Positions 2,302 to 64,000 of a DNA stretch of 64,000 nt are shown piece by piece. Under the pieces are notes generated by a model. The model was not told the DNA's origin, made no database searches, and saw nothing but the letters and a program-made list of their open reading frames with translations. The translations under genes and the position numbers were made by a program. Numbering within the stretch: the first letter of the stretch is position 1; every line of letters starts with the position of its first letter. Source of the DNA: Escherichia coli O127:H6 str. E2348/69 (GTDB lineage: Bacteria; Pseudomonadota; Gammaproteobacteria; Enterobacterales; Enterobacteriaceae); NCBI RefSeq assembly GCF_000026545.1, contig NC_011601.1. One strand, 5' to 3'.

Positions 2302-2705
2302 ATAGCCGCCTTGTTGTAATGACAACATTTTGCGGCTATTCTTGAATTGTTCTGGTTCAAGATTAGCCCCCGTTCTGTTGTCAGGTTATACCTCTCAACG
2401 TGCGGGGGTTTTCTCTTTCCAGCAACCAATGCCACCAGGGATAAAGCCCCCGCAACATTGCGCCTCACCGGATAACGCCGGCTTGGTGTGGATACTACGT
2501 CGCAATTCATCTTCACTTCATCCCTGAAATGTTTGCAACAAAGGGTACATTCCGGCTTTTCAACAGCTGTTACAGTCGTTTCGTGCAGGTTGTGGTACAG
2601 GCTTGCAATTCTGATTAACAACCTGTCCAGCTAGTATGAAGAAATATAATAAGCAGGAATTTATATTATCTCCCCCGATTTCCGTCATCGGAGGAGATAT
2701 AACTG

Positions 2706-5678: not shown

Positions 5679-5731
<53 letters not shown>

Positions 5732-5740
5732 ACCGACGTT

Positions 5741-7135
5741 TTGAGCCGTTTCGTTCCTCGCATTATTCCGCTTTATTTACTCTTGCTGGCGGCAGGCGGT
5801 ACAGCTAACGCACAATCTACCTTCGAGCAAAAAGCGGCGAATCCCTTTGATAATAACAATGATGGTCTGCCAGATTTAGGCATGGCACCCGAAAATCATG
5901 ATGGGGAAAAACACTTTGCTGAAATTGTGAAAGATTTCGGCGAAACCAGTATGAATGATAACGGGCTGGATACTGGCGAGCAGGCAAAAGCTTTCGCATT
6001 GGGAAAAGTCCGCGACGCGCTTAGTCAACAGGTTAATCAGCACGTAGAGTCCTGGCTATCACCGTGGGGAAATGCCAGTGTTGACGTCAAAGTGGATAAC
6101 GAAGGACATTTCACCGGCAGTCGTGGAAGCTGGTTTGTGCCGTTACAAGATAATGATCGTTATCTCACCTGGAGCCAGCTTGGTCTTACTCAGCAGGATG
6201 ATGGGCTGGTGAGCAATGTGGGCGTTGGGCAACGCTGGGCGCGCGGCAGCTGGCTGGTGGGTTATAACACTTTTTATGACAACTTGCTGGACGAAAATCT
6301 TCAGCGAGCGGGCTTCGGTGCCGAAGCGTGGGGCGAATATTTGCGACTATCGGCAAACTTTTATCAGCCGTTTGCTGCATGGCATGAACAGACAGCCACG
6401 CAGGAACAACGGATGGCGCGCGGGTACGACCTGACAGCCCGAATGCGCATGCCGTTCTATCAACACCTCAATACCAGTGTCAGCGTAGAACAGTATTTTG
6501 GTGATCGTGTTGATTTGTTTAACTCTGGTACGGGTTATCACAATCCCGTCGCGTTGAGTCTGGGATTAAATTATACCCCAGTGCCATTAGTCACTGTGAC
6601 GGCCCAGCATAAACAGGGTGAAAGTGGCGAGAATCAAAATAACCTCGGACTGAATCTTAACTACCGCTTTGGTGTACCGCTCAAAAAACAACTTTCTGCG
6701 GGCGAGGTTGCCGAAAGTCAGTCGTTACGTGGTAGTCGCTATGACAATCCGCAGCGAAATAATCTGCCGACTCTTGAGTACCGACAGCGAAAAACCTTAA
6801 CGGTGTTTCTGGCGACACCGCCGTGGGATCTAAAACCTGGCGAAACAGTGCCGCTGAAATTACAAATCCGCAGTCGTTACGGTATTCGGCAACTGATTTG
6901 GCAGGGCGATACGCAGATATTAAGTTTGACGCCGGGCGCACAAGCCAACAGCGTGGAGGGCTGGACGCTGATCATGCCTGACTGGCAGAACGGGGAAGGG
7001 GCGAGCAATCACTGGCGATTGTCGGTGGTGGTGGAAGATAACCAGGGGCAGCGTGTCTCCTCCAATGAGATCACGCTAACGCTTGTCGAACCGTTCGATG
7101 CATTGTCAAACGACGAACTGCGCTGGGAACCGTAA
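5741..7135 (+). CDS. ychO: Invasin/intimin-like inverse autotransporter family protein YchO
   Basis: 464 aa with signal-peptide-like N-terminus, conserved position upstream of narL; start uncertain. Confidence 0.8.
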   Translation: MSRFVPRIIPLYLLLLAAGGTANAQSTFEQKAANPFDNNNDGLPDLGMAPENHDGEKHFAEIVKDFGETSMNDNGLDTGEQAKAFALGKVRDALSQQVNQHVESWLSPWGNASVDVKVDNEGHFTGSRGSWFVPLQDNDRYLTWSQLGLTQQDDGLVSNVGVGQRWARGSWLVGYNTFYDNLLDENLQRAGFGAEAWGEYLRLSANFYQPFAAWHEQTATQEQRMARGYDLTARMRMPFYQHLNTSVSVEQYFGDRVDLFNSGTGYHNPVALSLGLNYTPVPLVTVTAQHKQGESGENQNNLGLNLNYRFGVPLKKQLSAGEVAESQSLRGSRYDNPQRNNLPTLEYRQRKTLTVFLATPPWDLKPGETVPLKLQIRSRYGIRQLIWQGDTQILSLTPGAQANSVEGWTLIMPDWQNGEGASNHWRLSVVVEDNQGQRVSSNEITLTLVEPFDALSNDELRWEP

Positions 7136-56010: not shown

Positions 56011-56063
56011 CGGCGGCAGAGCAGTCACGGAGTAAAACTGATACCGCCAAACGTCACCAGAAA
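56011..56063 (-). ncRNA. dicF: DicF small RNA (ftsZ translation inhibitor)
   Basis: Minus strand reads TTTCTGGTGACGTTTGGCGGTATCAGTTTTACTCCGTGACTGCTCTGCCGCCG then a T-run, matching recalled DicF. Confidence 0.85.
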
Positions 56064-60809: not shown

Positions 60810-61331
60810 ATGGGAATAACTAAAGAACGATTGTTGGAAATAGCAAACCTTAGTGATTGGGCATTAAGTGATGAGAGAATTGTTTCTCCTCATGCTTATG
60901 AGTCAGTTACAAGTATAGAAATAACAACAATGGCTAGAATGCTGCTTGGTTATTTCAAAATAGAAAATAAAAAACAGATGGATAGTAATGTTGATATATG
61001 TGAGATTTTAGACGATTGGGGGGCTTGGGTTGTGGCTGGTAATAGTTCTATTGATTGGCAGGAAATAGCTGATAAATATAAAAATGTTGTTCCTCATGGT
61101 AAAAAATCACGTCGTCAGTGCAGCAATGATGAAGGGCGAATTATTGACATTAGTATCCTTAGGTTAGAAAGATATAAGCAACAAGAATATGAGTTAATTG
61201 TTGCTCATTTCGTGATTGGTTTATCTCTTCGTGCTATTGCAAAGCAACAAGGATGTTCAGATGGAACAATTCGTAAAAGATTGCAAAAAGCCTTAGGTTT
61301 TTTGACTGGATATATAGCAATTACCAGTTAA
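60810..61331 (+). CDS. Q: Late-gene antitermination protein Q (933W/H-19B-type Q family)
   Basis: Matches recalled 933W-type Q: WGAW, SRRQCSNDEG, and C-terminal HTH GLSLRAIAKQQGCSDGTIRKRLQKALGFL. Confidence 0.75.
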   Translation: MGITKERLLEIANLSDWALSDERIVSPHAYESVTSIEITTMARMLLGYFKIENKKQMDSNVDICEILDDWGAWVVAGNSSIDWQEIADKYKNVVPHGKKSRRQCSNDEGRIIDISILRLERYKQQEYELIVAHFVIGLSLRAIAKQQGCSDGTIRKRLQKALGFLTGYIAITS

Positions 61332-61969
61332 GAGTCAGCGGTTTTTTTACCAGTGTAATGGTATAAGGATACTCCCATGTGTCTTACATGATATGGAAGC
61401 GCTGTTGCTGGATGCTTTGTGATACTCTTAAAGCGGAGGGGAGAGCCTTCCGCTTCAATTTCTGCGTCCGAAACGGTCGTAGAGAAAAATTCTTTCCATT
61501 CATTGAATTTTACTGCTGATTTGTCAGACTTTATATAAATTAGAATTCCTCCATGATCGTCACGTGACGTACCCGTGCCGTAACGTTCGGTTAGCTGAAT
61601 CCAGCCATTATGAATAGATTTGGGGCCTCTCCATAATTTTGCTTCACCGATCCATTCGAATTTTCCGAATTGATGTTTAACTAATAAATCAACGTGACCG
61701 CCATGTTGAGTATCATGTTCAACATCATAAAACCTACCTTTCAGGAAATTTTTGATCGACGCTGTTAGCTCGTCCTCTCCCCACTTAGCATCTTGATAGA
61801 AGTGTTTGTCATTTTCTAAATTCTGAATAGCGTCGTCTAAATCTTCATAGAGTTGCTTTACAAAAATATTTTTGTCTGCAGCTAATTTTCTTTGAACCAT
61901 TCCCCTAAATTCAGGATCCATTCTAATTAATGATTGAAGGTCTGCAGTACAGATGTTTACATCACTCAT
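61328..61969 (-). CDS. Cassette gene C: predicted PD-(D/E)xK-like nuclease (213 aa)
   Basis: ATG 61969 overlaps stop of gene B; motif GEDE...HVDLLV...EWIGEAK (E, D, ExK spacing typical of restriction-endonuclease fold); AT-rich. Confidence 0.6.
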   Translation of the reverse strand: MSDVNICTADLQSLIRMDPEFRGMVQRKLAADKNIFVKQLYEDLDDAIQNLENDKHFYQDAKWGEDELTASIKNFLKGRFYDVEHDTQHGGHVDLLVKHQFGKFEWIGEAKLWRGPKSIHNGWIQLTERYGTGTSRDDHGGILIYIKSDKSAVKFNEWKEFFSTTVSDAEIEAEGSPLRFKSITKHPATALPYHVRHMGVSLYHYTGKKTADS

Positions 61970-62390
61970 GCAGACTCTCCAAAAGACTCGAAGGAGTAAA
62001 GTATGGATAAAGATACTGGCTAAAATTATCAACCAATTCGCCAGTTTCTGGATGGTAAAAACTTCCTGTGTCTAAAGCATAGGAAATAAGATCATCTTCA
62101 ACTGGTATTGGTTCTTCCGTTAAATTATCAATGTATTGAAAATGCATATCCAATAGATGTGCTTTATAGCTAGATAAATAATCAGTTGCTTTTATTAGCA
62201 GGATATAGCCATCTTTCGTATCAGTTAGATAGGTTAAACCATTGATAAGGGTTTTGTATGTAAAGTGATTGATATTTTTAGCATCTTTACTAACCAGAAA
62301 AAGAAAAAGATCACGACACACACTGCGAACAGGATCATTAAAATCCTGCTCTATTTGCGTGATAATGTCGTGATATATACTCTTTTTCAT
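61962..62390 (-). CDS. Cassette gene B: hypothetical protein (142 aa)
   Basis: ATG overlaps stop of gene A (ATGA); no recognised motif; AT-rich. Confidence 0.6.
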   Translation of the reverse strand: MKKSIYHDIITQIEQDFNDPVRSVCRDLFLFLVSKDAKNINHFTYKTLINGLTYLTDTKDGYILLIKATDYLSSYKAHLLDMHFQYIDNLTEEPIPVEDDLISYALDTGSFYHPETGELVDNFSQYLYPYFTPSSLLESLHE

Positions 62391-63478
62391 TTATGGCCTG
62401 ATGATCTCGCTCTTCTTTTCTCTTCACAGGACTTAACAGAATCCAATATTTTTTCAACAATAAATATAATCGAATCAATGTTGTTACAGTTCTTCGCAAT
62501 TGCTTCATGCAACCTAATTCTAGGATTATCAAGCATTGTCCTTTTTCCTGGTAATATTAACTCTACTGATAAAATATGTGAAGAACTTTGTGGTAAATCC
62601 CAAATTTTTCCCAACTTAAACTTTGTCAATATTGGGCTTGCGGACTCTCCACTATGATGGTAAACATCTTGACGCAAACACTTTTGACTTGGTTTGAGTT
62701 TTAAAGAACTTGTATTGCCATCTGAGGTGATAAAAGATACATGAGAAATTCTGCCATCTACTTTTTCGTAAAGATCTTGTATTGAACCAAATAATTCAAG
62801 AGGATTGTTTAAAATAACGCCAGCTTCTTTTTTTATAAATTTAGCCACAAGGTATTGTTGAGGCTGTGATTCACTTCTTGGAAGGATAGATAAATCAATC
62901 GTAAGAATTAATATTTTTTCTGCAGGCATTAGCATGATGGTATTAAAGCATTGCGTGACTTGGCGTGTTTTGCATTTTATTTCTCCACCATTAGCACGTA
63001 ATTCCATACCCGCATCGCTAAGATGTGTTGGGTCAAGCTCTATCACTTCAGTGTAATACGCTTTGGATAAAAAAACAGCAGTGTCAATTTGTTTATCACG
63101 AATGATATCTTGACGTAGTTCAGCAAAATGCAGCTCAGTATCAGCAACTAACAGCTCCTCTCTGGATAAAGGAATTGGGTATTTTTCTGAGAAGGGGCTA
63201 TTGTCCTTTTTCTGATTTGTGAAAATTGTTTGTAATTTTGCTACGTCTTCATCGGTGATTCTATAAATAGAAAGTAATCGATTCCCGCTAAAAATTAAAC
63301 CTTTCCAGAAATCGTCGATTCTGTCTTTTAGGTCGGGATTATGCTGAACTACACTATTTACACGTTCAATAAAAAGGGGTAATCCTTGGGCCGTTACACC
63401 CAGTGATGAACCAAGAAGCTTACGGGTGTTGCGCCAGCCAAAGCGTGAATTGATGTTTTTTACTGTTTGCTCAAGCAT
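62387..63478 (-). CDS. Cassette gene A: hypothetical protein (363 aa)
   Basis: ATG 63478 preceded by AAGGAAG; no Walker A or other motif recognised; AT-rich. Confidence 0.6.
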   Translation of the reverse strand: MLEQTVKNINSRFGWRNTRKLLGSSLGVTAQGLPLFIERVNSVVQHNPDLKDRIDDFWKGLIFSGNRLLSIYRITDEDVAKLQTIFTNQKKDNSPFSEKYPIPLSREELLVADTELHFAELRQDIIRDKQIDTAVFLSKAYYTEVIELDPTHLSDAGMELRANGGEIKCKTRQVTQCFNTIMLMPAEKILILTIDLSILPRSESQPQQYLVAKFIKKEAGVILNNPLELFGSIQDLYEKVDGRISHVSFITSDGNTSSLKLKPSQKCLRQDVYHHSGESASPILTKFKLGKIWDLPQSSSHILSVELILPGKRTMLDNPRIRLHEAIAKNCNNIDSIIFIVEKILDSVKSCEEKRRARSSGHK

Positions 63479-63824
63479 TAACACTTCCTTAATTTTCCCT
63501 TAACAATTTAGGGTGCTAAACTTTTTTGCGCAGTTTACATAAAAAAATAGTGCGTACGCAAAAACTATCTAACATGATGAGCTTTAACCGGGAAATTTGT
63601 ATATGTTGTGAGCATAAAGTTGGCTGAGAAATCTAAAACGGGTAGAATGACTGCGGGTGCTTGAGGCTATCTGTCTCAGGCATGAACACCAAAAGGCAGA
63701 TAGAGAAAAGCCCCAGTTAACATTACGCGTCCGGCAAGACGCTTAACATTAATCTGAGGCCATATCTATGCTCTACACACGTAGGTTAGCCTCTTACGTG
63801 CCGAAAGGCAAGGAGAAGCAGGCT

Positions 63825-63980
63825 ATGAAGCAGCAAAAGGCGATGTTAATCGCCCTGATCGTCATCTGTTTAACCGTCATAATGACGGCACTGGTAACGA
63901 GGAAAGACCTCTGCGAGGTACGAATCCGAACCGGCCAGACGGAGGTCGCTGTCTTCACAGCTTACGAACCTGAGGAGTAA
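63825..63980 (+). CDS. hokD: Hok/Gef-family type I toxin (HokD/RelF-like)
   Basis: 51 aa MKQQKAMLIALIVICLTVIMTALVTRKDLCEVRIRTGQTEVAVFTAYEPEE; in-frame upstream extension from 63768 (mok-like). Confidence 0.9.
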   Translation: MKQQKAMLIALIVICLTVIMTALVTRKDLCEVRIRTGQTEVAVFTAYEPEE

Positions 63981-64000
63981 GAGACCAGGCGGGGGAGAAT

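Follow-up and report, generated by a model that had tools for sequence, protein, structure and literature searches.

Escherichia coli O127:H6 strain E2348/69 carries a hok-family reading frame beside a three-gene cassette of unassigned function, near the right end of the 64,000-nucleotide stretch analysed here (the window). Is this frame part of a complete type I toxin-antitoxin module, and is it connected with the cassette, as an earlier note made from the sequence alone had proposed? We conclude that the locus is very probably a sequence-intact, self-contained hok/mok/sok module of the hokD/hokW type, residing in a lambdoid prophage. All sequence elements of hok/mok/sok are present and conserved, well beyond what chance would produce, whereas its expression, processing, toxicity and biological role are inferred here from studied relatives. 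On present evidence, adjacency to the cassette is incidental.

The element as such is already well known and RefSeq annotates hokD in the E2348/69 genome; it annotates hokD alone, leaving mok and sok unmarked. Literature search combining E2348/69 and hok found nothing. The significance of the locus beyond correct annotation is small, since this is a textbook type I toxin-antitoxin module.

Genomic setting

The final 501 bases of the window match three E. coli O127:H6 E2348/69 assemblies with 100% identity, and so does the 2.3-kb cassette. Sequence past the window end was taken from the E2348/69 chromosome record and is given as window-equivalent positions (coordinates in this record, our locus L001, equal window positions minus 51499). 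The hok locus is situated in a lambdoid prophage adjoining ompW, within the early-right (replication-to-Q) region. Read along the hok strand, the prophage starts with integrase and excisionase, followed by exonuclease, dicB and DicF and then by repressor-region and replication-type genes. Next come a small Q-family gene, the three cassette genes on the opposite strand, and hok. Downstream of hok are a small hypothetical gene, then DUF968, RusA and Q, and finally lysis and terminase genes.

Two other RNA genes were detected in the window. DicF small RNA (56011-56062, minus strand; Rfam RF00039, 72.5 bits) adjoins dicB in the same prophage as hok. The rdlD antisense RNA (2349-2414, plus strand; Rfam RF01813, 87 bits) marks another type I toxin-antitoxin locus, ldr/rdl, which is unrelated to hok and lies in the chromosomal portion of the window.

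Table 1. Features of the hok/mok/sok locus and the neighbouring cassette; positions refer to the window unless marked as window-equivalent
Feature	Position	Strand	Description
Three-gene cassette	61328-63478	-	363, 142 and 197 aa; function unassigned by family searches
hok/mok promoter	63620-63648	+	-35 TTGGCT (63620-63625), 17-nt spacer, -10 TAGAAT (63643-63648); sigma-70 promoter scan
hok mRNA, part within the window	63655-64000	+	predicted to run on to about window-equivalent 64074
hok mRNA leader	63655-63830	+	tac, ucb, Sok-target hairpin and hok ribosome-binding site; Rfam RF01794
tac	63655-63666	+	GGGTGCTTGAGG; pattern search
ucb	63708-63714	+	AAGCCCC; pattern search
Sok RNA, predicted 77 nt	63700-63776	-	about 63776 to 63700; ends from alignment to annotated K-12 sokC (b4413)
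mok Shine-Dalgarno	63756-63759	+	GAGG; located by pattern search
Sok-target / mok-start hairpin	63756-63793	+	closing stem GAGGC (63756-63760) / GCCTC (63789-63793); part of Rfam consensus structure
mok (modulator of killing) ORF	63768-63980	+	70 aa, MLYTRRLASYVPKGKEKQAMKQQKAMLIALIVICLTVIMTALVTRKDLCEVRIRTGQTEVAVFTAYEPEE; hok overlaps in frame; from ORF list
sok promoter	63783-63811	-	-35 TTGCCT (63811 to 63806), 17-nt spacer, -10 TAACCT (63788 to 63783)
hok Shine-Dalgarno	63810-63815	+	AAGGAG; located by pattern search
hok (hokD allele)	63825-63980	+	51-aa membrane toxin, the last 51 aa of the mok frame
fbi	window-equivalent 64029-64041 (L001 12530-12542)	+	CCTCAACGCACCC; beyond the window, E2348/69 record
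rho-independent terminator	window-equivalent 64049-64074 (to L001 12575)	+	hairpin ACCCGC-TTCG-GCGGGT and T-run; beyond the window

Hok and Mok proteins

The 51-aa peptide had been described in the earlier note as a Hok/Gef protein nearly identical to HokD/RelF, and this assignment is borne out. It matches the Pfam family PF01848 (HOK_GEF) over profile positions 1-42 of 42 (E 4.3e-23; 81.1 bits with a cut-off of 22), the Hok/Mok reading frame matches PHROG 251, "MokW-like host killing" (E 1e-32), and RefSeq calls exactly this coding sequence hokD (WP_012578894.1). Identity is highest to K-12 HokD (50/51, the sole difference being V20M), followed by HokW of prophage Sp5 (46/51), HokC (40/51) and R1-type Hok (23/51).

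The in-frame upstream extension, likewise pointed out before, is the mok frame. Its ATG at 63768 and the preceding GAGG Shine-Dalgarno sequence align with those of mokC, mokW and IncFII/R1-type mok. The 70-residue product shares 63 residues with Sp5 MokW and 49 with K-12 MokC.

The codon for Tyr47 of Hok lies within a UACG motif (63963-63966, GCUUACGAA) that is kept in all related modules examined. UACG is the motif reported for TadA A-to-I editing, which changes Tyr to Cys in hokB and, as stated in a 2026 preprint (10.1101/2025.08.07.668861), acts similarly in hokC, hokD and hokE.

The antisense gene sok

Is the toxin accompanied by an antisense RNA? This RNA had been expected on the minus strand at about 63700-63830, and the predicted Sok and its promoter both fall within that interval (Table 1). 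Lack of an antisense promoter, which would speak against a working pair, was checked for. A promoter is present and its sequence is that of Sp5 sokW, where mutation of the -10 box (primer YO-421) led to loss of antitoxin activity; a fragment with the sokW promoter and Sok body restored this activity, and Northern blots revealed sokW RNA (PMC8621323). The E2348/69 promoter also aligns hexamer for hexamer with the IncFII/R1-type TTGCGC-17-TATCCT. A generic sigma-70 scan with a threshold of 9 of 12 consensus positions reported no minus-strand promoter. Since the sok promoter scores 8/12, under this threshold, and is identical to the mutationally validated sokW promoter, we do not take the miss as a sign of its absence.

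The predicted Sok starts 7 nt downstream of the -10 box. It would begin with a single-stranded 5' tail whose sequence complements the mok start and Shine-Dalgarno sequence, followed by a long terminator hairpin (plus-strand positions 63710-63761) and a U-rich 3' end, and its computed fold has -35.5 kcal/mol (z = -5.7). As judged from these elements, a putative Sok gene, equipped with a promoter and a terminator of its own, overlaps the mok translation-initiation region. The YUNR U-turn motif is absent from the target loop of the E2348/69 allele and of some others, whereas hokC, hokW and R1-type loops contain CUGA.

The hok mRNA

From the end of the -10 box of the hok promoter it is 7 nt to position 63655, where the Rfam match places the start of the mRNA. 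In a set of 68 distinct related modules, the -10 sequence TAGAAT occurs in 62 and a -35 of the form TTkGCr in most.

The structured leader that had been noticed before is real. It matches Rfam RF01794 over the entire model (positions 1-157 of 157; 117.1 bits with a gathering score of 59; E 8.5e-28), and the 421-nt hok transcript has a minimum free energy (MFE) fold of −169.6 kcal/mol (z = -7.1 relative to shuffles). Disruption of the leader had been named as a mark of an inactive locus; the leader is complete. The E2348/69 copy contains no IS element, frameshift or truncation, unlike K-12 hokD, K-12 hokC and the copy in strain STEC308.

In the MFE fold, fbi CCTCAACGCACCC pairs with tac GGGTGCTTGAGG, the first 12 nt of the mRNA, through 12 bp and one bulge. 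In at least 99% of the 68 related modules, these positions form canonical pairs. The pairing is also kept with other sequences, GGCGC/GCGCC in the R1-type locus and GGGUGC/GCACCC in E2348/69. Within the hokD family, tac-fbi pairs hardly vary and the covariation signal is uninformative.

When the 3' end is trimmed, the MFE fold of the mRNA displays a 5' metastable hairpin and not the tac-ucb "active" stem. For the leader alone, the metastable fold has -60.3 kcal/mol and the constrained tac-ucb fold -55.4 kcal/mol, that is 4.9 worse. Since the active stem does not appear in these folds, the refolding step of the mechanism given below rests on the Rfam consensus and literature.

A covariance-model search for Sok RNA, suggested in the earlier note, did match RF01794, but this match is the plus-strand hok leader and not the antisense RNA. 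Although the family is named "sok" antitoxin, it models the sense strand, starting at the hok mRNA 5' end (GGGUGCUUGAGG) and ending at the hok AUG. A minus-strand match of the same model at 63553-63714 was considered as Sok and rejected as noise (15 bits, E 0.93), the real match being on the plus strand. Annotation pipelines that take the strand of an RF01794 match literally would put the antitoxin on the wrong strand.

Distribution and boundaries of the module

We wondered how widespread the module is and where it ends. Of 5426 complete E. coli genomes, 4005 (about three quarters) contain the 434-nt segment from the -10 box to the terminator at a coverage of at least 80%, mostly with 95-99% identity. 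The median number of hok-related places per genome in this set is 2. The module is also present in 63 phage records, including mEp460, Rac and Stx phages. These figures stand beside a published survey, in which Hok occurs in almost 80% of available Enterobacteriaceae genomes and is four-fold enriched in prophages (10.1101/2025.08.07.668861).

Neighbourhoods were compared among 80 prophage loci whose Hok is at least 98% identical to that of E2348/69. Homology to the E2348/69 locus typically begins at the hok -10 or -35 box and stops at the terminator. The edges of the module (about 63619 and window-equivalent 64074) are sharp, with variation of about 3% inside and 36-38% just outside. For clustering, the E2348/69 locus was included, giving 80 usable upstream sequences (79 prophage loci and E2348/69) and 75 usable downstream sequences. 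On the upstream side of hok, the adjoining 1 kb sorts into 40 unrelated clusters, whereas the 1 kb downstream forms 12, one of which contains 49 of the 75 sequences. Reading of the predicted proteins revealed unrelated genes in the variable upstream slot, whose K-12 equivalent holds relBE. Thus hok forms the conserved right-hand border of a hypervariable slot for accessory genes in lambdoid prophages.

A variable core in the Sok target

Variation within the module is not uniform. Across the 68 distinct related modules (from loci L009-L088, with Hok at least 98% identical), variation per site is about 3% in both the leader and the 3' UTR and 2% between the sok promoter and the hok ATG, and the mok ATG is invariant. 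In contrast, variation reaches 25% per site at positions 63761-63782, a 22-nt core comprising the Sok 5' tail and the centre of the target hairpin. The core occurs as 14 haplotypes in the 68 modules, all of which fold to a hairpin (-11.5 to -15.9 kcal/mol) closed by invariant GAGGC/GCCUC. Because Sok is encoded in cis, every change in the core alters antitoxin and target together.

The core may therefore act as a specificity barcode under diversifying selection that insulates co-resident hok/sok copies from each other. This is a weaker proposal than functional coupling of hok to the cassette, considered below, and a more plausible one. Where hokD-type copies reside in the same genome, their target cores differ in 4 of 4 genome pairs as compared with 87% of random pairs, a comparison that has no statistical power.

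Proposed mechanism and role

The following scheme combines the anatomy of the E2348/69 locus with the established R1 hok/sok and Sp5 hokW-sokW systems. A weak constitutive promoter would give rise to a transcript of about 420 nt. With its 5' tac locked by the 3' fbi, the full-length mRNA would be stable, untranslated and not bound by Sok. Slow 3' trimming would take off fbi, upon which the leader would refold and uncover the Sok-target hairpin along with the mok ribosome-binding site. The hok frame would be translated through coupling to mok, which it overlaps and whose translation it would require. Abundant, short-lived Sok is expected to pair across the mok Shine-Dalgarno sequence and start codon, blocking translation and marking the duplex for RNase III. 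Once the Sok supply ends, possibly because the prophage is induced, transcription is shut off or the element is lost, Hok would be made from the stable mRNA pool, insert into the inner membrane and collapse or depolarise it.

For the biological role, hokW-sokW offers the nearest guide. HokW is toxic and sokW neutralises it; prophage induction leads to the loss of sokW and to the appearance of HokW about an hour before endolysin, and deletion of hokW-sokW delays growth arrest and halves phage release (PMC8621323). By this analogy, the E2348/69 module would most likely help cells to lyse and release phage once the prophage is induced, an effect that has been measured for hokW-sokW. Alternatively, it might serve in prophage retention or abortive infection.

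The neighbouring cassette and the question of activity

Since hok and the cassette are adjacent and divergent, they could be functionally coupled through their common 176-bp divergent promoter region, with hok serving for instance as suicide effector, the membrane-killing output of a new prophage-borne defence system. The junction is indeed kept in 12 of the 13 cassette-bearing genomes, and R1 hok/sok is reported to lower plating of T4. We nevertheless regard such coupling as highly improbable. Of 5426 E. coli genomes, 4005 contain the hok module and 13 the cassette, the cassette is common to only two viral loci among the 80 sequences with their 40 upstream contexts, and the hok promoter, -35 box included, is conserved in the 68 distinct modules regardless of the neighbour. 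Control of hok is, moreover, post-transcriptional. Among the cassette-bearing genomes listed, the adjacent hok copy is only about 93% identical in five; in STEC308, the one of these five that was examined, IS421 stands in place of the hok fbi and terminator while the cassette is intact, the -10 box is weakened (TCGAAT) and the sok promoter spacer has a 1-nt deletion. The cassette is itself no more than a candidate defence system: Pfam search with the three proteins returned no family match and PADLOC search a single weak partial one (197-aa protein, E 0.0014), with none for the other two. In the published survey, hok genes are not enriched near defence systems (12% observed, 9.4% at randomised positions; 10.1101/2025.08.07.668861). 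Consistent co-occurrence and dependence, as expected from a defence partnership, were thus not found. Because hok is widespread and bounded by its own conserved promoter and terminator, its upstream neighbours are variable and five of its cassette-side copies are diverged, the one in STEC308 also being disrupted, the co-regulation that had been put forward is not supported. The cassette should be judged on its own merits, hok merely marking the edge of the slot.

Another possibility is that the locus is structurally complete yet functionally silent, a conserved passenger of the prophage backbone that does not kill under natural conditions. Sequence integrity does not guarantee activity, since the apparently complete chromosomal hokA, hokB and hokC show no post-segregational or rifampicin-induced killing, as cited in 10.1101/2025.08.07.668861, and several chromosomal hok loci have been concluded to be silent. 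Repeated IS insertion into hok 3' UTRs (K-12 hokC, STEC308) indicates that loss of function is tolerated, and the lack of YUNR in the E2348/69 target loop may point in the same direction. Against this, every regulatory element is intact in the E2348/69 copy and the near-identical hokW-sokW is active in a prophage. Per-site variation of 2-3% in the leader, sok promoter and 3' UTR of the 68 modules, as compared with 36-38% in the flanks, suggests constraint on non-coding sequence, a pattern that whole-module mosaic exchange could mimic. On balance a silent passenger seems unlikely, though less so than coupling to the cassette, and we favour an intact, self-contained module.

Several further observations concern the cassette. 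A small Q-family antiterminator gene is located upstream of it in all 13 genomes. Its proteins match PHROGs 12777, 11490 and 9664, all of them families of unknown function. In one further cassette genome, IS1 is found where cassette homology stops, with no hok annotated beyond. The region between cassette and hok contains an inverted repeat with arms of 8 bp, TTTTTGCG at 63523-63530 and CGCAAAAA at 63557-63564, as well as a perfect palindrome of 10 bp, TGCGTACGCA (63551-63560). These sequences (63523-63564) could represent an operator for the cassette promoter.

The IS insertions in hok genes share a target. IS421 in STEC308 (L007, about 5680-5870) and IS186 in K-12 hokC (L003, 432-452), both IS186-family elements, are inserted at an identical position in the hok 3' UTR, directly following GGCGGGG. 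From this point onward the two sequences are identical, and fbi and terminator are removed in both. IS186-family elements seem to have disabled hok loci repeatedly in this manner.

Comparison with known systems

The closest tested relative is hokW-sokW (with mokW) from the Stx2 prophage Sp5 (VT2-Sakai) of E. coli O157:H7 Sakai (Takada et al. 2021, PMC8621323). The two modules, both in lambdoid prophages, are 93.4% identical over 410 nt of DNA. Their leaders have the same architecture, including a Sok hairpin that is 18 nt longer than in hokC and R1, and their sok promoters (TTGCCT-17-TAACCT) and tac-fbi pairs are identical. Differences concern residue 20 of Hok (M in E2348/69, V in HokW), its C-terminus (TAYEPEE and VDYESEK, respectively) and 7 positions of the 22-nt Sok-tail/target core, so that Sok specificity may differ. 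The sequences part right after fbi, giving hokW-sokW a different terminator, and the upstream neighbours differ as well.

The archetype of the mechanism is hok/sok (parB) of plasmid R1 and its IncFII relatives, which acts in a plasmid setting by post-segregational killing. Here mok, hok, position and spacing of the sok promoter, tac-fbi pairing and terminator all align with E2348/69. On the other hand, Hok is identical at only 23 of 51 residues, tac and fbi differ in sequence yet are complementary, and the first leader hairpin is longer in R1.

The hokC/mokC/sokC locus (gef) of K-12 has the same order of elements and an identical tac, GGGTGCTTGAGGC, together with 40/51 identity in Hok. K-12 sokC aligns with the predicted E2348/69 Sok in the 5' end, the terminator and the UUUUCUCUAU tail; it has 59 nt as compared with the predicted 77 nt because the Sok hairpin of E2348/69 is longer by 18 nt. 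In contrast to the E2348/69 module, hokC is chromosomal and not prophage-borne, and its 3' end is interrupted by IS186.

Comparison with K-12 hokD (relF), which the earlier note had recommended, was fruitful in part. This locus, in the Qin cryptic prophage, agrees with E2348/69 in Hok (50/51), 3' UTR, fbi and terminator. Near-identical protein, common 3' UTR and location in a lambdoid prophage together place the E2348/69 gene in the hokD orthologue group. K-12 hokD is truncated, however: on the upstream side, homology reaches no further than 14 nt from the hok ATG, to the junction with the 3' end of relE. Missing its regulatory elements, namely hok promoter, tac, ucb, mok start, Sok target and sok gene, it is a poor comparator for the rest of the locus. 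E2348/69 has all of these elements, and its copy, with the full regulatory apparatus, represents the native hokD locus better than the K-12 reference does.
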